NCBI GenBank assembly: GCA_000002445.1
Contig: CP000070.1
Location: 288,001 to 352,000, forward strand
Length of the DNA: 64,000 nt
Direction of reading: 5' to 3'
Origin: Trypanosoma brucei
Taxonomy: Eukaryota
In this document: piece by piece, positions 2,302 through 55,984 of the stretch
How the letters are laid out: each line of letters starts with the position of its first letter
Numbering within the stretch: the first letter of the stretch is position 1
Notes under the pieces: model-generated
Database searches by the model: none
What the model saw: only the letters and a program-made list of their open reading frames with translations
Told to the model about the DNA's origin: nothing
Position numbers and translations under genes: made by a program

Positions 2302-2802
2302 ATGTCTACAATCTTTGACTTTGAGGTGCTTGACGCCGACCATAAGCCATATAATCTCGTGCAACACAAGGGCTCTCCGCTACTGATATACAATGTGGCA
2401 AGTAAATGCGGTTACACAAAGGGTGGTTATGAAACGGCGACAGCACTCTACAACAAGTACAAGTCACAGGGATTCACTGTTCTGGTGTTTCCCTGCAATG
2501 AGTTTGGTGGTCAGGAAGCCGGAAACGAGGAGGAAATCAAGGAGTTTGTATGCACCAAGTTCAAGGCTGAGTTTCCAATTATGGCGAAAATTAACGTAAA
2601 TGGTGAAAACGCACACCCATTGTATGAGTACATGAAAAAAACTAAACCTGGTATTCTTGCAACGAAGGCTATCAAATGGAACTTTACATCCTTCCTCATT
2701 GATCGAGATGGCGTACCCGTGGAGCGCTTCTCACCTGGTGCCTCTGTGAAGGATATTGAGGAGAAACTCATTCCACTGCTCGAAAGCACGCAGAGCGCGT
2801 GA
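2302..2802 (+). CDS. PxI: glutathione-peroxidase-type tryparedoxin peroxidase (non-selenium, Cys-based), array copy 1
   Basis: 166-aa ORF with GPx family motifs (NVASKCGYT, FPCNQFG-like FPCNEFGGQE, WNFTSFLIDRDG). It is the first of three tandem near-identical copies and lacks the N-terminal extension. Confidence 0.88.
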   Translation: MSTIFDFEVLDADHKPYNLVQHKGSPLLIYNVASKCGYTKGGYETATALYNKYKSQGFTVLVFPCNEFGGQEAGNEEEIKEFVCTKFKAEFPIMAKINVNGENAHPLYEYMKKTKPGILATKAIKWNFTSFLIDRDGVPVERFSPGASVKDIEEKLIPLLESTQSA

Positions 2803-3228
2803 TGGATTTGTCGCTGAAACGGAGTGCGCGGCTGGTGATGTGAAGTGCTGCCGATGATCGAGGACAGTGAAGTTGTAAATGATAATATGAAAAACGCGTT
2901 AATGAAGGGACCGTAAGTTTGCCCGCTTATGGTGATTATGGCACCCAGGTGTAACGCCAGCGGAGGTCATTTGATTTTCTCCATTATAATTTTTTTGTTT
3001 TGAAAGGGCGTTGTGTCGTGTGCCACTCAGTGAATGTTGCTGTAATTAAGTCGGAAGGGAAGTGGTTAAGGGGCAAGCTTCTGTTTTTGTGAACGAGGTA
3101 GTGCATCAACTAATATTGTACAGATTAGTCGCCTTCAGTTCCTATTTCGCTTTGTTTTTGTCCTTGCGTCGTTGGGAAGCAACACAAACAAGACTACCAA
3201 CTCCTTCGGCACTCATTCGGATAAAAAG

Positions 3229-3738
3229 ATGTCAGCTGCTTCGTCAATCTTTGACTTTGAGGTGCTTGACGCCGACCATAAGCCATATAATCTCGTGCAA
3301 CACAAGGGCTCTCCGCTACTGATATACAATGTGGCAAGTAAATGCGGTTACACAAAGGGTGGTTATGAAACGGCGACAACACTCTACAACAAGTACAAGT
3401 CACAGGGCTTCACTGTTCTGGCGTTCCCGTGTAACCAATTTGGTGGTCAGGAACCCGGAACCGAGGAGGAAATTAAGGAGTTTGTATGCACCAAGTTCAA
3501 GGCTGAGTTTCCAATTATGGCGAAAATTAACGTAAATGGTGAAAACGCACACCCATTGTATGAGTACATGAAAAAAACTAAACCTGGTATCCTCAAAACG
3601 AAGGCTATCAAATGGAACTTTACATCCTTCCTCATTGATCGAGATGGCGTACCCGTGGAGCGCTTCTCACCTGGTGCCTCTGTGAAGGATATTGAGAAAA
3701 AACTCATTCCACTGCTCGAAAGCACGCAGAGCGCGTGA
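3229..3738 (+). CDS. PxII: glutathione-peroxidase-type tryparedoxin peroxidase, array copy 2
   Basis: Start placed at the internal Met (MSAASSIFDFEV) by comparison with copies 1 and 3. The six-frame ORF starts at 3172, but its leader MGSNTNKTTNSF lies in sequence shared with the intergenic repeat. About 97% aa identity to copy 3. Confidence 0.85.
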   Translation: MSAASSIFDFEVLDADHKPYNLVQHKGSPLLIYNVASKCGYTKGGYETATTLYNKYKSQGFTVLAFPCNQFGGQEPGTEEEIKEFVCTKFKAEFPIMAKINVNGENAHPLYEYMKKTKPGILKTKAIKWNFTSFLIDRDGVPVERFSPGASVKDIEKKLIPLLESTQSA

Positions 3739-4139
3739 TGGATTTGTCGCTGAAACGGAGTGCGCGGCTGGTGATGTGAAGTGCTGCCGATGATCGAGGA
3801 CAGTGAAGTTGTGAATGATAGTATGAAAAACGCGTTAATGTAGGGACCGTAAGTTTGCCCGCTTATGGTGATTATGGCACCCAGGTGTAACGCCAGCGGA
3901 GGTCATTTGATTTTCTCCATTATAATTTTTTTGTTTTGAAAGGGCGTTGTGTCGTGTGCCACTCAGTGAATGTTGCTGTAATTAAGTCAGAAGGGAAGTG
4001 GTTAAGGGGCAAGCTTCTGTTTTTGTGAACGAGGTAGTGCATCAACTAATATTGTACAGATTAGTCGCCTTCAGTTCCTATTTCGCTTTGTTTTTGTCCT
4101 TGCGTCGTTGGGAAGCAACACAAACAAGACTACCAACTC

Positions 4140-4670
4140 ATGCTGCGTTCATCTCGGAAAAAGATGTCAGCTGCTTCGTCAATCTTTGACTTTGAGGTGC
4201 TTGACGCCGACCATAAGCCATATAATCTCGTGCAACACAAGGGCTCTCCGCTACTGATATACAATGTGGCAAGTAAATGCGGTTACACAAAGGGTGGTTA
4301 TGAAACGGCGACAGCACTCTACAACAAGTACAAGTCACAGGGCTTCACTGTTCTGGCGTTCCCGTGTAACCAATTTGGTGGTCAGGAACCCGGAACCGAG
4401 GAGGAAATTAAGGAGTTTGTATGCACCAAGTTCAAGGCTGAGTTTCCAATTATGGCGAAAATTAACGTAAATGGTGAAAACGCACACCCATTGTATGAGT
4501 ACATGAAAAAAACTAAACCTGGTATTCTTGCAACGAAGGCTATCAAATGGAACTTTACATCCTTCCTCATTGATCGAGATGGCGTACCCGTGGAGCGCTT
4601 CTCACCTGGTGCCTCTGTGAAGGATATTGAGGAGAAACTCATTCCACTGCTCGGGAGTGCGCGACTTTGA
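4140..4670 (+). CDS. PxIII: glutathione-peroxidase-type tryparedoxin peroxidase with N-terminal MLRSSRKK extension and C-terminal ARL, array copy 3
   Basis: 176-aa ORF. The body is identical in type to copies 1-2. It has a unique basic N-terminal extension (mitochondrial-presequence-like) and a unique C-terminus ...GSARL (PTS1-like). An alternative start is at 4164. Confidence 0.85.
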   Translation: MLRSSRKKMSAASSIFDFEVLDADHKPYNLVQHKGSPLLIYNVASKCGYTKGGYETATALYNKYKSQGFTVLAFPCNQFGGQEPGTEEEIKEFVCTKFKAEFPIMAKINVNGENAHPLYEYMKKTKPGILATKAIKWNFTSFLIDRDGVPVERFSPGASVKDIEEKLIPLLGSARL

Positions 4671-9862: not shown

Positions 9863-10234
9863 CAAGGAGGAGTGTGTAGGGAGTGAGTGACTCGTGTGTG
9901 GTGCATAATACCTGTTTATGCGCGTTTCGGTGTAAAGGGGGTACAAGTGGAGTTCTCTGATGACATTGCATGAAATACACACTTAATGCGGGCGCTACTT
10001 GGATATTCTGTTGCCTACCCTTTCACTACCTTGCTTCGCTGGAGGCAAGTTTGTTGACCTTTTTCAAGTTTGTGGAAATTGTGCGTCTGCCTACGCGGAG
10101 AGAACAACAACTAGTAGCGATACACGGTCGGCGTCAGGGGCAAAAACAAGAAAAAAGAGGAAGGTTTTGCTTAACGAATGCTGTGCCGTAGCCCGTGCTG
10201 CGCGGCACCTGTCTTCTGCCGTATTGTCGATATT

Positions 10235-10570
10235 ATGCGGCAGCGTGAACCTTACGCGCGTCCAGGTATTCTTTACCCTATCCGCGTGGAATTGGGTGAC
10301 CGTGTGGATAAGTGTACCCCGCATGAGTTGCAGGAGCTTATTGACACGATGCTTGCTCGATCTCAGCGGTACGGCACAGTCAAAACAGGGACGGTATATA
10401 ATGTGAATCAGTCTGTGGCAACGGAAATTAGGGCGTATGGACGCTACGTAGTGACGGGAAACATGCGCGGTGGCTACATCAAGGGGGATCATCGATACGG
10501 CCCGCGCTTGACGGGATATAGTGGGGCAACAACGAAACCAGGACTTAAATGGAACGGGGAGGACTTATGA
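10235..10570 (+). CDS. candidate small protein (about 111 aa; ORF opens at 10178)
   Basis: ORF in the 1 kb gap between two + strand genes. Balanced, non-repetitive composition (…GILYPIRVELGDRVDKCTPHELQELIDTMLARSQRYG…). A 133-aa antisense ORF covers it. Weak call. Confidence 0.3.
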   Translation: MRQREPYARPGILYPIRVELGDRVDKCTPHELQELIDTMLARSQRYGTVKTGTVYNVNQSVATEIRAYGRYVVTGNMRGGYIKGDHRYGPRLTGYSGATTKPGLKWNGEDL

Positions 10571-10872
10571 AACCGCAATCGATTACCGTCCCTTCGAATA
10601 TGCCTTCCTCTCCAGTCTGAAAACAGCGCGATCAAACAGTTTGAGTAGTTTGAAAAGTTGGCTTTCGGCCTGGGTTGCCTCTCATCCCAGGTTTCCTTGT
10701 TGATAACCTCCGCATTATTTGAAAATTGTATGTGTGCTGCCACTCGAATGTGTACATCTATGTGTTGTGGTCCCGTTTGCATTTGCACTCATGTTTCCTG
10801 CAAGGGATCAGCCATAAACTGGACCCCTGTTCAAGATAGGTTTACCATACTGAAAAGAAAAAGAAAAAGGAG

Positions 10873-35933: not shown

Positions 35934-37418
35934 CACAGTTGAGGTGTGTGTCTATGTGTGTGTGTGTGTGTGTTAGGTGCAGGTGCGGGTACATGACATA
36001 ACTATTTTTTCCACCTTTCACTGCCCCATCGCGCGAGCATCGCATCGATTATGTGAAGCTACCCTTTGTATTTAACTACGCCTGTACATCTTCATACATT
36101 TACCGTTTTTTTTGTTTGCCCTTGCGCGAGGTATCGTGTCACACGTGTTTCTGTAACGCCTGTAGAATTGTTACGTATGGGCATCACCCATGAGAAACCA
36201 TCGCATCTAGGCGTGTGCCATCTGCTTTACCTCCCCACAAGAAAAAAATAATTACATCAAAACGTGCACAAATACATAACAGCGAAAAGTGCATTGAGGA
36301 GGATTGCCTTTATCTTTTTCTTCTTGTATTGAAGGCATGAACTAAGTGGTAGAACATTTGGTTGCGATCGTACCCCTCCACCCATTCAGCAACCGTTCAT
36401 GCTATTTTTACCTTGTTATCTTTCGTGCACATTTACACGCCTTCCCTCGTATATAATTTCTCTTCGTTTTTCATCTAGTTCTGTTTCTTCTGTTTTATTT
36501 TTTTTTTTTGCCCCCCTTGCACCATTAGCCCGTTCTTCATCGCATGAAATTGAAAATTCATGCAGTGAAACGGATGGCACCACTGCGACGACAAACATTG
36601 CTGTTATAATTGTTGTTTGTCACTTCACGTTCGGCCTCATTTCACTTCTCTTTCTCTCTTTTAACTGGGCAGTTTTAAGTCGTTTTCATTGTTTTGGTTT
36701 GGTCCCCTCGCTTACACTTAAATGAAGATAAACAACGAATGCGACCATGCCGCCCAATATTGCTGTTTCCTCGATGGTTTGTCGCAGACACTTCGCTGCA
36801 CGGCCATAAAATTTTGCTCGCTTCTTTTTCTCTTTTTTTTTTTAAGTACTATTCGTCTCGTCCTTTGTTGGTATTATATTTGTTGAAGGAGGAGAGTTAT
36901 GTGAGGAGGCCCTCTCAACCACTCAGCAAATTTCGAGGAAAAGGAAAAGATGTAGCAATTGGGATGCTTTGTGGGAATCGTTGCGTCTCTCACTTTGTTT
37001 TTTATTTTTATTTACTACTCTTTTTTTTTTTTTGAGAAGGCGTGTATTTCGAAGGAGGATAAATAGAAGTGATGAATATTTCAAATATCTCCTTGTATGT
37101 ATATATATATATATGCGGTTTACTTTAATAGTTCCTTCACTTGCTGTCCCCTCCCCCCTCTCTCTCTCTTTCTCTCTATTCTTTCCGTTTATTTGTATTA
37201 ACTTTTTGTGTTTCCGTAGTCTTATGATTAGACGTGTGTTCAAATAAACACGCAAGTGGTAACGTTGCATTCTACAATATTTCTGCTTTTGTGCACCTTT
37301 TATGGTACAGGTGTTGCTGAAGGTGCATAATAGAAGTACGGCCCACCATCATCACCACGTACGGTTTTCGTGATTCTGCGACTGGTGTCAACAAAAGGGA
37401 AGGGTACTCGAGGAGGAA

Positions 37419-38405
37419 ATGCAACGCCGCTTGCAGTGTTGTTTAATGCGTGTAGCGCGCTTACATTCGGCAGCATTGATGCATAATACAAATGGTTGGC
37501 TTATGATATCTTGCAGAACCGTACACATTACAGAGAGTGAGGCACAGTCGTTGGTACATTTGTCTGAGGCGCTTTTTTCTGATGAGGCAAATGCTCTGGG
37601 AGTATGTCTACCCGATACCAGCCTTAACCTTGACGGAGAAAGTGGGGAAGGGGATTTATATACTGAGACACTCACAACAGAGAAGTATATGGATGTGCTC
37701 GTTAGTTCACCAACACAAATAGATACGAGGGGAAATGTTTCTGCTTCATCAACGGATCTGATGATGCCGCTTACGCAAGCGGTGCAAGAACTGAAGTTAT
37801 GTCAGCAAAGAGAAGATCAGCGAGCCATTTCTGCAGCGCTTTCAACAGCCATGTGTGCGTTGATGGGAAGTAGTTCATCTCCTTCCAGTGCTGCTGCAGC
37901 TGAGTTATTGTTAGCCGGTGCAGACTTGAAAGCAATCATTTCTGATGGTACTATTCGACATATGTGCATTGAGGATAAATGCATGAGTCGATGTGATTTT
38001 TCCACTTTGTCACTACTTTCTGTACAGGCAAATCGCGTGGATTTCTCGCGCAGTCTCTTTTATGCTGCTGCCTTCCATAATTGTGTGTTTAGGAACTGCT
38101 CTTTTGAGGGGTGTGTACTGAAGGAACTCCGATGTTTAGGAGATGTGTGTTTTGATGGATGCTCCTTTTGTTTTGCGAACATATCGTTACGTATACCTCA
38201 TGAGAAACCGAGGCGTATTTCGGTATCTTCGGCTGCCACAGAAGGCGTGGGAAGGTATTCTGCGGAACATGCTGTGATATTTAACCGCTGTGATTTTGAC
38301 CTCTGTGATTTTGATGGTTGTGATACCCTTCCTGCATCTTGCTTTACGAACTGCACCAATACTCACCTCGCCGCCAAATTTTCGTCATGTGTGAGAACAT
38401 CATAA
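37419..38405 (+). CDS. Cys-rich pentapeptide-repeat-like protein, copy 1 (328 aa)
   Basis: C-terminal half has 5-residue periodicity with a central F/L and Cys at i-2: VDFSR SLFYA AAFHN CVFRN CSFEG CVLKE … VIFNR CDFDL CDFDG CD. The N-terminus is basic and Cys-rich. Confidence 0.7.
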   Translation: MQRRLQCCLMRVARLHSAALMHNTNGWLMISCRTVHITESEAQSLVHLSEALFSDEANALGVCLPDTSLNLDGESGEGDLYTETLTTEKYMDVLVSSPTQIDTRGNVSASSTDLMMPLTQAVQELKLCQQREDQRAISAALSTAMCALMGSSSSPSSAAAAELLLAGADLKAIISDGTIRHMCIEDKCMSRCDFSTLSLLSVQANRVDFSRSLFYAAAFHNCVFRNCSFEGCVLKELRCLGDVCFDGCSFCFANISLRIPHEKPRRISVSSAATEGVGRYSAEHAVIFNRCDFDLCDFDGCDTLPASCFTNCTNTHLAAKFSSCVRTS

Positions 38406-39526
38406 CTGTTGAAACTGCAAGATGAATGACACGAAATAAAGAAGCTTTCGGCTACTATTGGGTTGCCTTGCGTCTGTTTATTTGTTTCATTACTTGAACG
38501 CTTATGTCTGAAGAAGTGAAGGATGGGGTGGAATGTTAAAATGCAGACTAAAACTTTCCCCACGCGCTTAAATGCATTCACCATCAAGTGGGATCTGAAG
38601 GAATACTTATCATCCCCTTCAATTATTGGTACTCATCCATCAATACATGCAACCCAATCAGGTATTTACTCTCTGCTCCAAACAACAAGAATCAGTTACG
38701 TGCGTCATTGGATTTACACGTCCTCTCCTTTTTTTTTTCGTTCGTTTTCAAAATATTCATTTGAATGTGTTTTGACATTCTTCTGTATCATCATTACACT
38801 TTATCTGCAGCGATGAGGTTTGGGAAAAGGGAAAATGTACGAATGGCCGTGCGACTTGCTTCTTTCAGTTCCTTTAACCTTATTGAGTTTCCTTCATTGC
38901 TGTGTCGTGCTGTACACAACACTTTGTGTGCTGGTTGGAATTATGTGGGGATGTTTTTTTTTTTTGCATTTCCCTCTCCACACAGTAAGCCCCTCATCAT
39001 CATTTTCACATTTCTCATCAATCAACATTATAAATACCTGCCCATTGGGTTGTCTGTTACGTGATATGCGTGTAAAATATTCTGGTTCCTTCCTTTCGCA
39101 TGTTTCTGTGGATACTCGAATGTACATATATTTTTTCCTAATCATTTTCCATGCTATTTCTTCCCTATCACTCTTATGGGAAAGTTTGTTTGTCCTGTAC
39201 TTACGAAACCAAGCGCAAGTACATTAGTGTCATACCAATCAGAAAGGTTCGCAGTATTATTCTTATTCTTATTGTGCCCGTGGTATATATATATATATTT
39301 ATATATATACGTACATATATACACCTTTCTATTATTCTAGGTTGGTGCCTTTTTAAAAGTCTTCCCATTAGTTTTTTTTGTGAACATATCCCTATTACTA
39401 GCACTGCCACTGTTACTGTTTGGCTCCTTCTTTGAGTGAGCGCCTGCATCCATTTAAGTGTATATTTATTATTTTTTCGGAAACCACAACCAATTGAACG
39501 ACTACTAAAAGCAAACCAAACAAAAG

Positions 39527-40228
39527 ATGATGGAAAGTATGAACCTTGAACAACCACCACGACTAAACGCCGACCCCTGGCGAGATATGGAGCCAAAGGT
39601 GGATGCAATGCTAGGCGATCTACTCATGATATCTGAGCGTTTCCGAAGGATCGTAAATCCGACAGTGTCTGATGCAGATGAATTAATTGAAGCCATCAAC
39701 TCTGTGGGTGGAGAAGTTGAGACGATGCGGGTCGCTTTAGACACTACGATTGAGCGGCCGGAACTCTTTTCTGTAGATGCGGAAGAATTGAAAAGACGCA
39801 CGGAGAAAACTCGCTCGTGGGAGCGCGATGTTGCGAAAGCCATCGAGTTGCGATCAAAGATATTATCAAACCGTGAAGGGCAAATACAGGATCCACTTGA
39901 GAGTAACGTAATGACACCAAATACATGGGTTGATTTGGACACAACTCATATTCATCCATCAGCTCAGTCGTCGCATATGCCAATGAATAGTTGTGAAGCG
40001 ACTACTGACACATCTGTTGGTGTTGTTGAGTCTCAAGCTCTTATGCCAGTTGGAATACCCATACGTGAGCAAACAGTGAAGGCATCCGAATACTCAACCG
40101 CAAGTGTCGAGGTGCATACAGTGGATGATGTGGATGATCCCAATAATGAGGGATCTCTACTAAAGTACGTATTGGTTATCCTCTTAGTATCATCCATTCT
40201 TGTAGCAATATCGTTGATTTTCTTCTGA
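39527..40228 (+). CDS. tail-anchored membrane protein, copy 1 (233 aa)
   Basis: Soluble helical/acidic body with a single C-terminal hydrophobic segment LVILLVSSILVAISLIFF as the last residues. No signal peptide. Confidence 0.65.
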   Translation: MMESMNLEQPPRLNADPWRDMEPKVDAMLGDLLMISERFRRIVNPTVSDADELIEAINSVGGEVETMRVALDTTIERPELFSVDAEELKRRTEKTRSWERDVAKAIELRSKILSNREGQIQDPLESNVMTPNTWVDLDTTHIHPSAQSSHMPMNSCEATTDTSVGVVESQALMPVGIPIREQTVKASEYSTASVEVHTVDDVDDPNNEGSLLKYVLVILLVSSILVAISLIFF

Positions 40229-41640
40229 TTTTTTGATACTGAACTTTATCTCCTCTAATTGTTTCTTTTTGCGTGACTATCCTTCATCCTATGTTAAACG
40301 AAAGTAGGAGCTTATGTTTACGTATGTAGGTGCGCATTTTCTTTGTGGAAATATGTATGCATGCGTGTGGTTTTCTTTTTCATTAAAGCCTGCGAGGTGA
40401 ATGATGGAGTTTTGCTTCATATTTTATACAGAGATTGCTTAATTTGTCTTTCAGTTTCTAACTGTTTTTACCTTTTATTTCATTTATCGTAATGAAAGCC
40501 TACACTGAGCACAAGATACAAACAAGCGGTGTAGGGGAATGCTGCAAGTAACATTTGTAGTTTAAAAGTTATAACTGCAACTGAAAAGTCTCCCAATGGG
40601 CGCAGAAAGGTTTACAAACTTTACAGCTCTAAGAGCTTTCGCAGAAGCATATGCGCAAACGATTTTGTCGCCCAATATTTGGTGCTGGTACGTTACATGT
40701 GAAAAGTTCAATGATATCTGAAGTAAGGGAAATGACATCCGTATTTCTCTCGGATGGGGGGGGGGGGAAAGAAGCTTGGTTTCACATGTTCGGGTTAATC
40801 CTTGATATCCTTCAGCGTAATAAGACATAAATTCATCCTCAGCTCTGTCGAACAGGCGCGAGCGAAGGTTTTGGAATGAATGTTGGGCTCTCACGTAATG
40901 CAACCCCAATCCTTTTCAACGTTGCAAAATGACTTAAGGACAACTGCTTTGATAAAGATGGGGTATACACGAAAACTCACTGTTGAAGCGGGAACACAGG
41001 CATTTGATTAAAAGATAGTTAAGAATGATGAAAGGCGACAACTATAAAATGCAGGAAAATATTATGTTAGCCGCGGGAGCAGGTTTAATGAAGGGCGATC
41101 GAGTAACATAAATGGAAAACAGCGGCGAGTACATGGACCACTTAAATAAATGACAAAAGTGCAGCACCTTGCGCAATTGAAAGAGATGCTTTGTGGGAAT
41201 CGTTGCGTCTCTCACTTTGTTTTTTATTTTTATTTACTACTCTTTTTTTTTTTTTGAGAAGGCGTGTATTTCGAAGGAGGATAAATAGAAGTGATGAATA
41301 TTTCAAATATCTCCTTGTATGTATATATATATATATGCGGTTTACTTTAATAGTTCCTTCACTTGCTGTCCCCTCCCCCCTCTCTCTCTCTTTCTCTCTA
41401 TTCTTTCCGTTTATTTGTATTAACTTTTTGTGTTTCCGTAGTCTTATGATTAGACGTGTGTTCAAATAAACACGCAAGTGGTAACGTTGCATTCTACAAT
41501 ATTTCTGCTTTTGTGCACCTTTTATGGTACAGGTGTTGCTGAAGGTGCATAATAGAAGTACGGCCCACCATCATCACCACGTACGGTTTTCGTGATTCTG
41601 CGACTGGTGTCAACAAAAGGGAAGGGTACTCGAGGAGGAA

Positions 41641-42627
41641 ATGCAACGCCGCTTGCAGTGTTGTTTAATGCGTGTAGCGCGCTTACATTCGGCAGCATTG
41701 ATGCATAATACAAATGGTTGGCTTATGATATCTTGCAGAACCGTACGCATTACAGAGAGTGAGGCACAGTCGTTGGTACATTTGTCTGAGGCGCTTTTTT
41801 CTGATGAGGCAAATGCTCTGGGAGTATGTCTACCCGATACCAGCCTTAACCTTGACGGAGAAAGTGGGGAAGGGGATTTATATACTGAGACACTCACAAC
41901 AGAGAAGTATATGGATGTGCTCGTTAGTTCACCAACACAAATAGATACGAGGGGAAATGTTTCTGCTTCATCAACGGATCTGATGATGCCGCTTACGCAA
42001 GCGGTGCAAGAACTGAAGTTATGTCAGCAAAGAGAAGATCAGCGAGCCATTTCTGCAGCGCTTTCAACAGCCATGTGTGCGTTGATGGGAAGTAGTTCAT
42101 CTCCTTCCAGTGCTGCTGCAGCTGAGTTATTGTTAGCCGGTGCAGACTTGAAAGCAATCATTTCTGATGGTACTATTCGACATATGTGCATTGAGGATAA
42201 ATGCATGAGTCGATGTGATTTTTCCACTTTGTCACTACTTTCTGTACAGGCAAATCGCGTGGATTTCTCGCGCAGTCTCTTTTATGCTGCTGCCTTCCAT
42301 AATTGTGTGTTTAGGAACTGCTCTTTTGAGGGGTGTGTACTGAAGGAACTCCGATGTTTAGGAGATGTGTGTTTTGATGGATGCTCCTTTTGTTTTGCGA
42401 ACATATCGTTACGTATACCTCATGAGAAACCGAGGCGTATTTCGGTATCTTCGGCTGCCACAGAAGGCGTGGGAAGGTATTCTGCGGAACATGCTGTGAT
42501 ATTTAACCGCTGTGATTTTGACCTCTGTGATTTTGATGGTTGTGATACCCTTCCTGCATCTTGCTTTACGAACTGCACCAATACTCACCTCGCCGCCAAA
42601 TTTTCGTCATGTGTGAGAACATCATAA
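41641..42627 (+). CDS. Cys-rich pentapeptide-repeat-like protein, copy 2 (328 aa; one aa difference from copy 1: H36R)
   Basis: Same as copy 1. Confidence 0.7.
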   Translation: MQRRLQCCLMRVARLHSAALMHNTNGWLMISCRTVRITESEAQSLVHLSEALFSDEANALGVCLPDTSLNLDGESGEGDLYTETLTTEKYMDVLVSSPTQIDTRGNVSASSTDLMMPLTQAVQELKLCQQREDQRAISAALSTAMCALMGSSSSPSSAAAAELLLAGADLKAIISDGTIRHMCIEDKCMSRCDFSTLSLLSVQANRVDFSRSLFYAAAFHNCVFRNCSFEGCVLKELRCLGDVCFDGCSFCFANISLRIPHEKPRRISVSSAATEGVGRYSAEHAVIFNRCDFDLCDFDGCDTLPASCFTNCTNTHLAAKFSSCVRTS

Positions 42628-43745
42628 CTGTTGAAACTGCAAGATGAATGACACGAAATAAAGAAGCTTTCGGCTACTATTGGGTTGCCTTGCGTCTGTT
42701 TATTTGTTTCATTACTTGAACGCTTATGTCTGAAGAAGTGAAGGATGGGGTGGAATGTTAAAATGCAGACTAAAACTTTCCCCACGCGCTTAAATGCATT
42801 CACCATCAAGTGGGATCTGAAGGAATACTTATCATCCCCTTCAATTATTGGTACTCATCCATCAATACATGCAACCCAATCAGGTATTTACTCTCTGCTC
42901 CAAACAACAAGAATCAGTTACGTGCGTCATTGGATTTACACGTCCTCTCCTTTTTTTTTCGTTCGTTTTCAAAATATTCATTTGAATGTGTTTTGACATT
43001 CTTCTGTATCATCATTACACTTTATCTGCAGCGATGAGGATTGGGAAAAGGGAAAATGTACGAATGGCCGTGCGACTTGCTTCTTTCAGTTCCTTTAACC
43101 TTATTGAGTTTCCTTCATTGCTGTGTCGTGCTGTACACAACACTTTGTGTGCTGGTTGGAATTATGTGGGGATGTTTTTTTTTTTTGCATTTCCCTCTCC
43201 ACACAGTAAGCCCCTCATCATCATTTTCACATTTCTCATCAATCAACATTATAAATACCTGCCCATTGGGTTGTCTGTTACGTGATATGCGTGTAAAATA
43301 TTCTGGTTCCTTCCTTTCGCATGTTTCTGTGGATACTCGAATGTACATATATTTTTTCCTAATCATTTTCCATGCTATTTCTTCCCTATCACTCTCATGG
43401 GAAAGTTTGTTTGTCCTGTACTTACGAAACCAAGCGCAAGTACATTAGTGTCATACCAATCAGAAAGGTTCGCAGTATTATTCTTATTCTTATTGTGCCC
43501 GTGATATTTATATATATTTATATATATACGTACATATATACACCTTTCTATTATTCTAGGTTGGTGCCTTTTTAAAAGTCTTCCCATTAGTTTTTTTTGT
43601 GAACATATCCCTATTACTAGCACTGCCACTGTTACTGTTTGGCTCCTTCTTTGAGTGAGCGCCTGCATCCATTTAAGTGTATATTTATTATTTTTTCGGA
43701 AACCACAACCAATTGAACGACTACTAAAGGCAAACCAAACAAAAG

Positions 43746-44447
43746 ATGATGGAAAGTATGAACCTTGAACAACCACCACGACTAAACGCCGACCCCTGGC
43801 GAGATATGGAGCCAAAGGTGGATGCAATGCTAGGCGATCTACTCATGATATCTGAGCGTTTCCGAAGGATCGTAAATCCGACAGTGTCTGATGCAGATGA
43901 ATTAATTGAAGCCATCAACTCTGTGGGTGGAGAAGTTGAGACGATGCGGGTCGCTTTAGACACTACGATTGAGCGGCCGGAACTCTTTTCTGTAGATGCG
44001 GAAGAATTGAAAAGACGCACGGAGAAAACTCGCTCGTGGGAGCGCGATGTTGCGAAAGCCATCGAGTTGCGATCAAAGATATTATCAAACCGTGAAGGGC
44101 AAATACAGGATCCACTTGAGAGTAACGTAATGACACCAAATACATGGGTTGATTTGGACACAACTCATATCCATCCATCAGCTCAGTCGTCGCATATGCC
44201 AATGAATAGTTGTGAAGCGACTACTGACACATCTGTTGGTGTTGTTGAGTCTCAAGCTCTTATGCCAGTTGGAATACCCATACGTGAGCAAACAGTGAAG
44301 GCATCCGAATACTCAACCGCAAGTGTCGAGGTGCATACAGTGGATGATGTGGATGATAGTAGGAGCTCTAATTCTGCTAAGAAGACGGTCTTGATTATAT
44401 TTTTTGCATCGTCTCTTCTTGTGGCTATACTGGTGATTTTCTTTTGA
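43746..44447 (+). CDS. tail-anchored membrane protein, copy 2 (233 aa; divergent C-terminal 28 residues)
   Basis: Identical to copy 1 up to …TVDDVDD, then SRSSNSAKKTVLIIFFASSLLVAILVIFF versus PNNEGSLLKYVLVILLVSSILVAISLIFF. Same length. Confidence 0.65.
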   Translation: MMESMNLEQPPRLNADPWRDMEPKVDAMLGDLLMISERFRRIVNPTVSDADELIEAINSVGGEVETMRVALDTTIERPELFSVDAEELKRRTEKTRSWERDVAKAIELRSKILSNREGQIQDPLESNVMTPNTWVDLDTTHIHPSAQSSHMPMNSCEATTDTSVGVVESQALMPVGIPIREQTVKASEYSTASVEVHTVDDVDDSRSSNSAKKTVLIIFFASSLLVAILVIFF

Positions 44448-44505
44448 TTTTTTGATACTGAACCTTATCCGCTCTAATTGTTTCTTTCTGTTCGCTTGTT
44501 GTTAC

Positions 44506-44528
44506 TATATATATATATATATATATAT
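44506..44528. repeat. (TA)11-12 microsatellite just 3' of duplication copy 2
   Basis: Direct read. Confidence 0.9.
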
Positions 44529-45217
44529 GTTCTTTTAATTGATAATGAGTTAGCTCTTATGGGTTGAAAGTAGAGTGAAGTTGTGGTATTGTTAACTCCT
44601 GTCGAGTCCATTTTGTTGTTGCTTCTTGTTGAGCACCACCTATTTGTTTTTCTTTGGTCCACTCATCGTTTGTTCATTATGACGAGCAGCAGGTACTGTA
44701 ATTAGATCGAATGGGTGACTTTTTTTTTGTTGTTGTCGCTTTTTTTTTTCTGTTTATATTTTTTTTCGGCCTCCTTTTTGTAGTTTACCTCATTAGCGTT
44801 TGTCAGATTGTCATTCGAACGTGCGAACGAACAGTCACCGTCATTAACGTGCTTTTTTATTAATTATTTAAGCGTTTTTTTCATTTTTATATGTTTGTAT
44901 GATGTTGTTGTACGCGGGCACACGTGGTTGCATTGCCATCTGCCGTATGGGTGTTGTTGATTCATTACTTGGATTCACAGGTGGACTTATTATACGGATT
45001 CCGTAAACTTTGTTTTATTCTCTGAGCGAGCTGTTATAAATATTTATTATACTTTCACTTCGCCTTCCTCCTGTAGTTATCTTTTTTTAAAAAAAGATTA
45101 AGAAGTAGGAATAGGGGCAAATAATCAGATACTCCCTTCTCGCCTCTCCTGACGGCAGCGCGGTGATAGCACGGGTGTAGAAAATAGTATTTTTTTTTTC
45201 TGTTACGAGGGGAACTG

Positions 45218-45946
45218 ATGTTTGGACGTGGTTGCATGCTCACTTTTATTAGCACGGCTCTGTTGCTTCTTGGGGTCGGAGATGCGGCGGATGTTAAAGA
45301 CGGGCAAGGGAGTGTACAAACAACCAGTGATGACGTGTCGTATTATGGCCGTTTGAAGCTGCACCCAACCCTTGTCAATAATCCTGACTTCCACAACCCG
45401 CTGTGGCATGTTCAGGGAGGGGAGGTGATTCTAAGCAATGCTCAGCACTCATTTCGTGTGCCGACGCAAGTGGATGGTTCTTTTGTTGTACATGGTGTCC
45501 CTTACGGAAGTTACTACCTCCATGCGGAATATAGTGATCACATCTACCCAACCATTCGCGTTGATGTAACTCAGAAGACTTCCCATGGGTTAGTACGACC
45601 ACTTATACGAACTTATGCAAACGAGGCGATACTCCAGCAATTACAAGGAACCGGTTTAGACGAATCGGCACCAGCAACCATTCCTTTTGTTGGAATTCAC
45701 AACTATTTTGTGCCTCGTGAAGAGTACACTGTGTGGGGTTTACTGACAAATCCAATGATCATGATGATGCTAGTCTCTATGGCATTGATTGGGATGATGA
45801 ATTTGGTGCCAGAGGAGGAACGAAGAGAGTCCATGCGGGAGTTCCAGAACCTACGTAAGCAGTTTTCTGGTGGAGGTGCTGACGAGATTAAGCAACCGGC
45901 AAGGCGTGCGGTCACTGCGGCGGGACACGAGAGGAAGCACAAGTGA
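45218..45946 (+). CDS. ER membrane protein complex subunit 7 (EMC7)-like
   Basis: Signal-peptide-like N-terminus. [33 protein letters not shown] parallels human EMC7 [58 protein letters not shown] parallels [26 protein letters not shown]. Single TM and basic tail. Confidence 0.7.
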   Translation: [242 protein letters not shown]

Positions 45947-52766: not shown

Positions 52767-53385
52767 TTACTGCAGCGTGTGACGGTGTGCAACATGAGAA
52801 CCGATGCTGTTGTTTAATCCACTGAGGGGCGCAGCCAAGGATAAGCATTCCTATATATATATATATATATCATTATATGTAATGCATACACATGTTTCAA
52901 TCACTGCTGAGTCCTTCGGCATCTCTTTTTCACCTTTCGCTTATCATTTGCACGCCCTCTTCTTCATTCCGTTTTCACTCCCTCTCCTCTTGCCCCCGGG
53001 AGAATCCCCTCCGTTTTGTTGTTGTTTCCGTCTATACTTGCTCGGTCAAATAGGGAAACTAACAAGAAAGTGGCACTTATAGGGGTTGAGCTCCTCTTAT
53101 CAGGCTCCCTGATGGCAGCAGCGGTGATCAAAATTGTCACTTCTGTCTTTAGCATTTTGTTATTTTTATGCATTGCATATTGTTTTTCTTCTTGAAAGGT
53201 ATATATGTGTACATATGTTTGTATTATTATTGTTATTATCACTTATCGCATTCCCTTTTACTGTGTTCAAGGTTCTATACGCTACAAGTAAAGTTTTTTT
53301 TTCTCAAGGGCAGGGCAGCCACCAGATAAAGGAAGGGAAGTAATCTGCTTATTTGAATCGAACAACAAAAGCTATAAAAAGAGCA

Positions 53386-53787
53386 GCTAATTACAGGCAG
53401 TTCCGCTTACGACTAAGCAGATTTCATTCAGCAACTAAAGCAACACAGGTATGCTCCGCGTTTCCATTCCCGCACTCAAGACGCTGCAGCCTCTGGGCTC
53501 GCGTGTGCTGGTGAGACGCACTCTGGCAGCCAAGCAAACAAAGGCCGGTGTGCTCATCCCCGAGCAAGTTGCTGGTAAAGTCAACGAGGGTACCGTTGTC
53601 GCTGTGGCGGCTGCAACAAAGGACTGGACACCGAGTGTGAAGGTTAATGACACTGTGCTACTTCCTGAGTTTGGTGGAAGCAGTATTAAGCTGGAAGGAG
53701 AGGAACTGTTCCTCTACAACGAAGACTCGTTGCTTGGTGTTATCCAGAATTGAAGGGTGGACAGTAACCGCTAACGTGCATCACGTC
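53386..53787 (+). repeat. HSP10 cassette duplication, copy 1 (CDS plus 65 bp 5' and 34 bp 3' flank)
   Basis: Identical to 55583..55984. Confidence 0.9.
53451..53753 (+). CDS. HSP10: 10 kDa chaperonin (HSP10/CPN10, GroES family), copy 1
   Basis: 100 aa. Mobile loop AAKQTKAGVLIPE, roof/hairpin region and LFLYNEDSLLGVI end match the GroES/CPN10 family. Confidence 0.9.
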   Translation: MLRVSIPALKTLQPLGSRVLVRRTLAAKQTKAGVLIPEQVAGKVNEGTVVAVAAATKDWTPSVKVNDTVLLPEFGGSSIKLEGEELFLYNEDSLLGVIQN

Positions 53788-54228: not shown

Positions 54229-55296
54229 ATGTTTTGTGACGCTGAAGATGGGGCTGCCATAGTTTCTCATATTCCAATAAGTCCTTTTGTCCCAATACAA
54301 CACAATAATATTGATGTCTCCGCTGTGAATCGCCTTGCAAACTTCGCCATTCGCTTCGCCAGGGAACACGGCTGGTGTTCCAGTCACCCTTTCAAGATGA
54401 GCTCGGGCCCCAAAATTGGAGAGAATAAAGGCGAGAGCAATGAACTTGATGATATCACTGTTTTCTATGCGGGTGTGGAGGTTGAGCTTGCCGAAGAAAC
54501 CCCGAAGTTCAAAAGAGAGGGCACTCCTGCGTCTCTCTTTCTCTATGCACAGTTATGGCTCTCACATGTAGGTGTGAGCAGCAATGGCCTGTGTGGCAAA
54601 CTCTTTAGCTTCAAGAAGGATGAGGAGGATTGCAGGGAGTTTCTGGGTTCGTTCAAGCTCACAGGCGTTACCGTGTCAAGAACGACTCGTAAACCCACGC
54701 CTATTCCCGCGCCGCGACTCGAAATGATGCGTTCTTTGATCGCAAAAAACACAGCGGCATCGGAGCTGCCCAGGGTTGAGCGTATTAACTTCTCACAGCT
54801 CAACGAGCGGTGCCGTTTCGCTTCTGTCCGCTCCCACGAGGAATTTGCGTGTGCACTTCCATCGCACCCGGCCGTGGCTCCGCTGAAAGTTGGGTACCGC
54901 CGTGAGTTTCACCTGAGAGAAACCGATTTCGATTTTAACAGGCACGTAAACCAGGTTGTAACCATCACAATGGTCATCAACACCTTTCGAGCTGCTTTGG
55001 GTGACAACACAACCATTTTCCCGCGCTTGTTAGATACCGATGTCCACCCTCTGGATGGCGATTTGCTCATCCGAAGGCTACGCATTGACTACGTTCGGGA
55101 GGTACCTGCTGACCACGCCGCCATGGCAGTAATGTTATTCTTTCAAGATGATGTCTCAATGGATAATGTCATTGCGTCTTCCACAAATTCGAGAAAAAAA
55201 TCCCTTACTGAACTTTGGTTTATTGTGCAGGGAATCCCGGCCGCTGAGACCAATCCATTTGTCTCCGCGGTTGGTAAGGTGCTTTTGCGGTGCTGA
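54229..55296 (+). CDS. hotdog-fold acyl-ACP-thioesterase-like protein (355 aa)
   Basis: C-terminal hotdog with ETDFDFNRHVNQVVTITMV (D.N.HVNN-type motif) and …RRLRIDYVREV as in the PF01643-type thioesterases. The N-terminal half is not assigned. Confidence 0.45.
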   Translation: MFCDAEDGAAIVSHIPISPFVPIQHNNIDVSAVNRLANFAIRFAREHGWCSSHPFKMSSGPKIGENKGESNELDDITVFYAGVEVELAEETPKFKREGTPASLFLYAQLWLSHVGVSSNGLCGKLFSFKKDEEDCREFLGSFKLTGVTVSRTTRKPTPIPAPRLEMMRSLIAKNTAASELPRVERINFSQLNERCRFASVRSHEEFACALPSHPAVAPLKVGYRREFHLRETDFDFNRHVNQVVTITMVINTFRAALGDNTTIFPRLLDTDVHPLDGDLLIRRLRIDYVREVPADHAAMAVMLFFQDDVSMDNVIASSTNSRKKSLTELWFIVQGIPAAETNPFVSAVGKVLLRC

Positions 55297-55582
55297 CGAG
55301 ATATACCCCGGTGAAACACCTTAAATGTGTTCCCCGTTTAAGGACTTCGACGCCCATGCTAAGGGGAGATAAGTTTATTAAAATGAAACATCGTTGAAAC
55401 ACAGGGGGGAAACAAGGCAAAAATTGGAAAGAAAATATACTTTGTGAAGTTCACACCCACGTGCTCTGTTGGTCGAACTGGACCCAAACCGTAATTGCAC
55501 TCTGCCTTTCCCCACCTTTGCATGCCCGAATTAATGTACATTTCTCGCTTTCCTTTCTTTACAAGTAACCAGTGACCCAGAA

Positions 55583-55984
55583 GCTAATTACAGGCAGTTC
55601 CGCTTACGACTAAGCAGATTTCATTCAGCAACTAAAGCAACACAGGTATGCTCCGCGTTTCCATTCCCGCACTCAAGACGCTGCAGCCTCTGGGCTCGCG
55701 TGTGCTGGTGAGACGCACTCTGGCAGCCAAGCAAACAAAGGCCGGTGTGCTCATCCCCGAGCAAGTTGCTGGTAAAGTCAACGAGGGTACCGTTGTCGCT
55801 GTGGCGGCTGCAACAAAGGACTGGACACCGAGTGTGAAGGTTAATGACACTGTGCTACTTCCTGAGTTTGGTGGAAGCAGTATTAAGCTGGAAGGAGAGG
55901 AACTGTTCCTCTACAACGAAGACTCGTTGCTTGGTGTTATCCAGAATTGAAGGGTGGACAGTAACCGCTAACGTGCATCACGTC
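55583..55984 (+). repeat. HSP10 cassette duplication, copy 2
   Basis: Identical to copy 1, period 2197 bp. Confidence 0.9.
55648..55950 (+). CDS. HSP10: 10 kDa chaperonin (HSP10/CPN10), copy 2
   Basis: 100% identical ORF to 53451..53753. Confidence 0.9.
   Translation: MLRVSIPALKTLQPLGSRVLVRRTLAAKQTKAGVLIPEQVAGKVNEGTVVAVAAATKDWTPSVKVNDTVLLPEFGGSSIKLEGEELFLYNEDSLLGVIQN

Follow-up and report, generated by a model that had tools for sequence, protein, structure and literature searches.

The duplicated unit and its divergent end

We analysed a window of 64 kb (the whole stretch of DNA considered here) of Trypanosoma brucei TREU927 chromosome 7, which contains a tandem duplication of a two-gene unit. 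The second gene of this unit (gene B) codes for a predicted tail-anchored, Syx6-like protein of 233 amino acids (aa) without a SNARE motif, and its two copies end in different membrane anchors, PNNEGSLLKYVLVILLVSSILVAISLIFF in copy 1 and SRSSNSAKKTVLIIFFASSLLVAILVIFF in copy 2. The corresponding open reading frames (ORFs), 39527-40228 and 43746-44447, both on the plus strand, matched exactly the T. brucei brucei TREU927 proteins XP_845750 (Q57WS4) and XP_845752 (Q57WS2), which sit on the 2.2-Mb chromosome. In a self-BLAST the units appeared as one long direct repeat with 98.6% identity over 3310 columns. The first unit (X1) extends from 36963 to 40268 and comprises a 328-aa gene (gene A), an intergenic region, gene B and 40 nt of its 3' untranslated region (3'UTR); the second copy of this two-gene unit (X2) lies at 41185-44487, and both are on the plus strand. 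Gene A (37419-38405, with its twin at 41641-42627, plus strand) showed weak pentapeptide-repeat matches (Pfam Pentapeptide_3, E = 1.5e-4, below the gathering cut-off) and its copies have one non-synonymous difference.

Upstream of the repeat units, at 33.6-35.9 kb, there is a DAGK-type kinase that corresponds to the sphingosine kinase (SPHK) Tb927.7.1240. Downstream of X2 we found EMC7 (45218-45946, plus strand), which is Tb927.7.1290 and has been described as DUF2012/C15orf24-like (PMC3814921), and a protein disulfide isomerase (PDI) gene, identified by Pfam. Since four genes lie between Tb927.7.1240 and Tb927.7.1290, the tail-anchored pair presumably corresponds to Tb927.7.1260 (copy 1) and Tb927.7.1280 (copy 2), and the 328-aa pentapeptide-repeat pair probably to Tb927.7.1250 and Tb927.7.1270. 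All the plausible genes among the ORFs of at least 200 aa were on the plus strand, as expected of a trypanosome polycistron, and the paralogues are adjacent, on the same strand and in one transcription unit, like the T. brucei tandem duplicates that evolve in concert. A full-text literature search retrieved no paper naming Tb927.7.1250-.1280; the main text of the SNARE survey of Murungi 2014 contains no Tb927.7 identifiers, and the text of the T. b. gambiense genome paper no Tb927.7.12xx identifier for the tail-anchor locus.

The two units were compared in a MAFFT alignment of X1 and X2 with counts of differences per segment. From 36963 to 40138 (41185-44357 in X2) there were only seven substitutions and three small indel events in 3176 bp, and the coding sequence (CDS) of gene B was affected at a single position of the 612 bp found upstream of the patch described next (39527-40138). 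In the last 29 codons, from 40139 to 40225 (44358-44444 in copy 2, plus strand), 38 of 87 bp are substituted with no indels, a difference in density from the upstream sequence that was highly significant (Fisher's test, p = 7e-55). The juxtamembrane part of this patch (10 codons, 40139-40168) differs from 44358-44387 at 22 of 30 bases, which is the level of unrelated sequence, and the transmembrane (TM) part (19 codons, 40169-40225) differs from 44388-44444 at 16 of 57. Similarity is then recovered in a short island formed by the stop codon and 40 nt of the 3'UTR (40226-40268), where three of 43 bases differ from 44445-44487 (p = 0.009 for the TM part versus this island). Beyond 40268 the copies differ at 41 of 62 positions, that is, there is no homology.

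A sequence-only reading of this DNA had described units near-identical for 3.2 kb, followed by dense substitution without length change and by some 40 bp of renewed identity before the end of the duplication, and our counts agree with this description throughout (10 differences in 3176 bp, 38 in 87, 3 in 43). The two tail peptides that it quoted are exactly right. It also placed the patch properly, over the juxtamembrane residues and the anchor, with limits (40141-40231, paired with 44357-44447) that need a shift of 2-6 bp and with a count of 28 codons where there are 29. As an additional possibility, the juxtamembrane 30 bp were inspected, by eye and with a per-codon table, for a small inversion or for a shift of frame with respect to the other copy, and no convincing alternative register was found.

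The sequences that follow each unit are also different. The 916 bp between them (spacer S, 40269-41184, plus strand) are the copy-1-specific 3'UTR and intergenic DNA, and those from 44488 to 45217 (plus strand), which contain a (TA)n run and extend to EMC7, are their counterpart for copy 2. When the spacer was compared with the upstream flank of X1 (35934-36962) and the downstream flank of X2 (44488-45217), BLAST with a word size of 7 gave nothing below E = 0.2, and the Smith-Waterman scores for both flanks were inside the range obtained by dinucleotide shuffling. The divergent end of gene B is accompanied by unalignable UTR and intergenic DNA, like that of T. brucei tandem duplicates that evolve in concert. 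The absence of any relationship between the flanks outside the unit agrees with a duplication of sufficient age for unconstrained DNA to have diverged completely. The distal part of the spacer (40500-41184) is not U-rich, unlike typical trypanosome intergenic DNA. It has a run of about 12 G from near 40755 and a 115-aa ORF on the minus strand (40562-40909), and it could be a degraded insertion.

Age of the two tails and exchange between the copies

Synonymous divergence (dS) and its non-synonymous counterpart (dN) between the copies were estimated by the Nei-Gojobori method. Upstream of the patch the CDS of gene B gave a dS of 0.007 and a dN of 0. In the TM codons dS was 1.03 and dN 0.20 (dN/dS of about 0.2), and in the juxtamembrane codons both values were saturated. 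Of the 19 TM codons, seven have synonymous differences only, and the replacements in the others are hydrophobic-for-hydrophobic with the exception of S/L and V/A. Such a heavy load at the synonymous sites of the TM codons is not what a recent adaptive burst would produce; the tails are old and constrained. Furthermore, the polymorphisms found among strains within each tail type are five synonymous to one conservative non-synonymous (A/V), a ratio that departs from the 22:65 synonymous to non-synonymous sites available in the patch (binomial p = 0.005). Judging from these figures, both tails are held by purifying selection. The claim that such a mosaic does not result from the neutral decay of a recent duplicate, also made in the sequence-only reading, is borne out by the contrast between a dS of about 1.0 and one of 0.007, and its suggestion of selection on two tails finds support in the dN/dS ratio and in the polymorphism within types.

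Both tails are found in other genomes. In T. equiperdum an identical tail 1 is present in contig CZPT02000704, which also covers the 916-bp spacer and the first 71 bp of X2; contig CZPT02001763 begins 32 bp ahead of tail 2 and extends into EMC7. This species thus has both tails in the same arrangement as TREU927, with the assembly breaking within the repeat. Tail 1 recurs, changed by four synonymous substitutions, in the Logan assembly of run ERR034315; T. b. gambiense DAL972 and five ERR79291xx assemblies have tail 2. The recurrence of both tails in independent assemblies indicates that the pair is not a mis-assembly, one of the conditions under which the sequence-only reading would have abandoned its patch.

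These sequences allowed a four-sequence comparison of both TREU927 copies with the ERR034315 contig that carries tail 1 and the DAL972 unit that carries tail 2. In the body of the unit (37097-40138) all 20 informative sites united both TREU927 copies against ERR034315 and DAL972, and none grouped the sequences by tail type. In the patch all 33 informative sites grouped them by tail type. Such a switch in grouping marks a recombination breakpoint at 40138/40139. In the body the copies of one genome are more alike than the same copy in different strains, which is the cladistic signature of concerted evolution. The same can be seen at the protein level, with V83 and P152 accompanying both tails in TREU927 and I83 and L152 accompanying both tails elsewhere. 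A body that follows the strain and a patch that follows the tail type imply that the tails were distinct before the strains separated and that the body has been exchanged between copies since.

The patch shows some variation of its own. The codon 44406-44408 (variable at position 44407) is GCA (Ala221) in copy 2 of TREU927 and T. equiperdum and GTA (Val) in the other tail-2 sequences and in every tail-1 sequence, so that the alanine is a lineage-specific replacement in the TM segment. The tail-1 patches of TREU927 copy 1 and the ERR034315 contig (L003, 3035-3121) differ by 4.6%, versus 0.9% in the body (p = 0.01). All four differences are synonymous, and at two of them (40192 and 40204) the nucleotide is the one found in tail 2.

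The TM peptides of the two copies are identical at 12 of 19 residues, while the orthologue of T. congolense shares 8 of 19 with copy 1 and 5 of 19 with copy 2. Small as these numbers are, they suggest that the tails split after the divergence of T. congolense.

Taken together, the evidence points to an old tandem duplication in which concerted evolution stops at 40138/40139 and in which both tails are functional and selectively kept, a reading to which we would give a probability of roughly 0.78. In terms of sequence comparison, the patch is the old part of an old duplicate and the near-identity of the other 3.2 kb is the recent, derived state. The direction assumed in the sequence-only reading, namely a patch altered within a young duplicate, is reversed by the grouping of the body and patch sites. 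The process would have started with the tandem duplication of the two-gene unit in the polycistron between Tb927.7.1240 and Tb927.7.1290. Through repeated gene conversion or unequal crossing-over, about 3.2 kb of the two copies would then stay nearly identical within each strain. The exchange would halt at 40138/40139, leaving the old divergence in the last 29 codons and in everything past about 40 nt of the 3'UTR. We infer that this boundary persists because heterology blocks the conversion tracts, because convertants losing one tail are selected against, or both. The outcome would be two isoforms of one cytosolic protein, different only in the juxtamembrane residues and TM anchor and produced from mRNAs with unrelated 3'UTRs. 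For genome scanning the lesson is that when a near-identical duplicate shows a "hypervariable patch", this can be the old part and not the altered one, and that synonymous divergence and the grouping by strain or by copy are the criteria that decide between the two.

The post-stop island and other origins of the patch

Several points weigh against this interpretation. The strain comparison was built on contigs that come from separate isolates, and only peptide identities date the duplication relative to T. congolense. The DAL972 assembly (FN554970, 7444-10740) has a single two-gene unit, with the SPHK-side flank upstream and tail 2 with the EMC7-side flank downstream; this could be a collapsed repeat or a deletion by unequal crossing-over that has lost tail 1. 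As to function, the length and hydrophobicity of the TM segment, considered as predictors of different destinations, showed no difference between the tails (19-20 aa in both, with Kyte-Doolittle values of 3.09 and 3.11), and it is purely by inference that the isoforms would differ in their targeting to membranes, in partner lipids or in the stages at which they are expressed. The most specific difficulty is the post-stop island, which is 7% diverged versus 28% in the TM codons (where synonymous divergence is about 1). The island lies farther out than the patch, and a simple model of erosion from the edge predicts for it at least equal divergence, so that such a model does not explain it.

The sites of the island behave in two ways. 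Three of them (40245 and 40251-2) are fixed by tail type, and two features, the T/G polymorphism at 40233 and an AATT indel at 40256-40259, follow the strain. T and AATT are present in both TREU927 copies and in T. equiperdum; in the remaining strains G accompanies either tail type, and AATT is missing from the tail-2 copies. As both strain-following variants are shared by the two TREU927 copies, conversion may also act on these 43 bp. Constraint on the first 40 nt of the 3'UTR is one possible explanation of the island; rare discontinuous or short conversions, with convertants of the patch being lost, are another, and the import of the patch from a vanished copy is a third. The low divergence of the island still favours the mosaic that the sequence-only reading had in mind, and concerted evolution with an abrupt limit needs an extra assumption to accommodate it. 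A stronger version of our interpretation would be that the anchor patch is actively shielded from homogenisation, with selection keeping two differently anchored SNARE-less remnants of Syx6. Although conversion demonstrably acts on the upstream 3.2 kb, both tails have been retained wherever the duplication is seen. We consider this version rather doubtful. If it were true, a polybasic versus a neutral juxtamembrane segment might direct the isoforms to different endomembranes or lipid environments, and the "lost" Syx6-like 2 of African trypanosomes would be repurposed, not lost.

Among the alternatives to the old duplication, the one that survives best is the conversion from a third donor proposed in the sequence-only reading, by which one tail was overwritten with some 90 bp of a diverged third copy, maybe a lost member of the array, once 36963-40268 had become identical in both units. 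It would explain why the patch is flanked on both sides by far more similar DNA (1 difference in 612 bp of CDS upstream, 3 in 43 bp downstream) and why its TM part, in which replacements are conservative and synonymous changes numerous, looks like a functional homologue that has diverged. A lost donor is also conceivable, as arrays are generally known to gain and lose copies by unequal crossing-over (PMC1855330). The search for a third paralogue that this proposal called for was carried out, and none was found in the protein collections or in the window. A word-indexed search of 5.8 billion clusters with the full-length query returned one Trypanozoon cluster only, and the T. congolense query only itself; an exhaustive phmmer search of 1.84 billion representatives returned only the Trypanozoon cluster, T. 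congolense and distant SNARE-bearing homologues. With 40-aa tail queries there were two word-sharing candidates, none with E <= 10, in a search of limited sensitivity for short hydrophobic queries. Both patches gave only chance matches with the 64-kb window by BLASTN-short and TBLASTN. Besides, the juxtamembrane 30 bp, at random-level identity, would offer little for a homologous donor tract to pair with, and the switch in grouping is accounted for without any donor. We regard this origin as improbable.

Even less credit can be given to a recent duplication followed by rapid adaptive divergence, or by a local mutational burst, confined to the anchor. The divergence is indeed sharply localised to a functional module and the juxtamembrane codons differ at nearly every base, but synonymous sites have been hit as much as replacement sites in the TM codons. 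The tails predate the divergence of the strains and are conserved within each type, with polymorphism that is almost wholly synonymous, and the grouping of the body by strain requires exchange between copies that were already distinct. Finally, a false tandem repeat stitched from alleles or strain variants, or a chimeric join at the end of the repeat, is hardly credible in spite of the error-prone nature of Sanger-era assemblies at tandem repeats and of the single unit assembled in DAL972, given that in T. equiperdum tail 1, the spacer and the start of X2 are covered by one contig and the junction of tail 2 with EMC7 by another, and that both tails recur in independent short-read assemblies, each with its own polymorphisms.

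The tail-anchored protein and comparison with known systems

A phmmer search with the gene B protein found an orthologue in T. congolense (G0UPH7, 34% identity) and eight more distant proteins that align over the N-terminal ~100 residues, with E values of 1e-8 to 1e-20 for the homology of this N-domain. These eight carry the Pfam domains STX6_10_61_N and/or SNARE followed by a TM anchor. The match of gene B itself to STX6_10_61_N was weak (E = 0.09, 13.7 bits versus a cut-off of 29.4), although phmmer ties its residues 13-132 to proteins that pass or approach the cut-off of this model. The SNARE motif (PF05739), present in all eight distant homologues, was not detected in either T. brucei copy or in the T. 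congolense protein (P0008). AlphaFold2 predicted a three-helix bundle with long helices at 17-121 (pLDDT above 90), a non-helical, disordered region at 126-207 (pLDDT around 30) and, from 207 to 232, a TM helix. The 19-20 hydrophobic residues that reach the last residue, together with a polar N-terminus without signal peptide, are those of a predicted tail-anchored protein.

The position of the gene is also informative. On environmental kinetoplastid scaffolds (L009/L010) the order is DAGK/SPHK, an oxysterol-binding-protein gene, a SNARE-bearing homologue (P0018, at 10001-10792), EMC7 and PDI. By tblastn DAGK, SYX6 (N-domain only), EMC7 and PDI were collinear on our window, as positional orthologues should be. 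On gene order and N-domain homology, gene B is the positional orthologue of a Syx6-like Qc-SNARE whose SNARE motif has apparently disappeared in T. brucei and T. congolense. Gene A occupies the slot of the oxysterol-binding-protein gene of these scaffolds, and no remnant of the latter was found within the 64-kb window. The SNARE inventory of Venkatesh et al. 2017 gives "Qc-Syx6-like 2" as lost in African trypanosomes (PMC5399786), and gene B may be its remnant. It shares with the kinetoplastid Syx6-like Qc-SNAREs (PMC5399786) a C-terminal TM anchor and, by phmmer, homology of its predicted three-helix N-terminal domain, and with the SNARE-bearing P0018 the position between SPHK and EMC7/PDI. 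Unlike in these, no SNARE motif can be detected in the T. brucei or T. congolense protein, and residues 126-207 are predicted to be disordered. This side finding refines the published inventory (PMC5399786), as the N-domain and the anchor appear to have been kept and the SNARE motif lost.

What distinguishes the two tails is the charge of the ten juxtamembrane residues, PNNEGSLLKY in copy 1 (net charge 0) and SRSSNSAKKT in copy 2 (+3). The basic segment of copy 2 resembles the GRAKRT of T. congolense and the SD-x-x-K of the SNARE-bearing homologues. The mRNAs of gene B have unrelated 3'UTRs from 40 nt past the stop codon, and in trypanosomes the 3'UTR is the main site of gene regulation (for PGK, PMC7729029). 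The likeliest functional explanation is probably subfunctionalisation, by membrane or lipid preference or by stage-specific expression. That the two tails have different membrane destinations, as the sequence-only reading had proposed, is a hypothesis that such a difference in charge might accommodate. In any case, two isoforms that differ only in the tail anchor and in juxtamembrane charge provide a natural tail-swap experiment for the sorting of tail-anchored proteins in T. brucei.

The pattern found here is already well known in trypanosome gene arrays; the gene B isoform pair itself is undescribed. In the survey of Jackson 2007 (BMC Evol Biol 7:54, PMC1855330) T. brucei tandem arrays generally evolve in concert, and the copies that escape homogenisation are divergent ones, with distinctive C-termini and with UTRs that cannot be aligned. 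The last copy of array Tb105a, which has a distinctive C-terminus and unrelated UTRs, is the example of "mixed dynamics" (PMC1855330). As in these arrays, the gene B paralogues are in tandem in one polycistron, most of the unit is homogenised, different segments give inconsistent phylogenies, and the 3'UTR and intergenic sequence are remodelled where the unit diverges. The locus is not in Table 1 of that paper (PMC1855330). Unlike those arrays, as the survey dealt with arrays of more than three copies (PMC2854126), gene B has only two copies within a two-gene unit, and its boundary cuts the CDS precisely where the tail-anchor module begins, with a 43-bp island of similarity beyond.

The window contains another case of homogenised bodies with isoform-specific ends. 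The array Px I-III (2302-4670, the Tb927.7.1120 array) consists of three glutathione-peroxidase-type tryparedoxin peroxidases with a period of ~936 bp and 97% identity. Their bodies are almost identical, their N-termini are MSTIF.., MGSNTNKTTNSFGTHSDKKMSAASS.. (from a TTG-initiated mechanical ORF call with unverified start) and MLRSSRKKMSAASS.., and their C-termini ..ESTQSA vs ..GSARL. There is in addition a 406-bp duplicate with 99.75% identity (53382-53787 and 55579-55984), in which identical 100-aa Cpn10 genes (53451-53753 and 55648-55950) flank an unrelated 355-aa gene (54229-55296).

Further parallels come from isoforms with known compartments. In PGKB and PGKC, near-identical neighbouring phosphoglycerate kinases of trypanosomatids, it is the termini that set the compartment (PMC7729029), and gene conversion between them was reported by Parker et al. 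1995, cited there; their mRNAs come from one polycistron and are regulated post-transcriptionally (PMC7729029). Gene B resembles them in being a pair of adjacent genes with almost identical bodies and with the identity of the isoform at the C-terminus. The PGKC difference is an added C-terminal extension with a glycosomal signal, unlike the gene B tails, which are of equal length and both TM anchors. In the arginine kinases TbAK1-3, also near-identical isoforms, the termini were shown by experiment to determine the compartment (PMC3679164). Like TbAK1-3 and Px I-III, the gene B copies are virtually identical paralogues that differ only at short termini. However, TbAK1-3 and Px I-III are soluble enzymes whose targeting peptides are N- or C-terminal, while in gene B the variable module is the membrane anchor itself.

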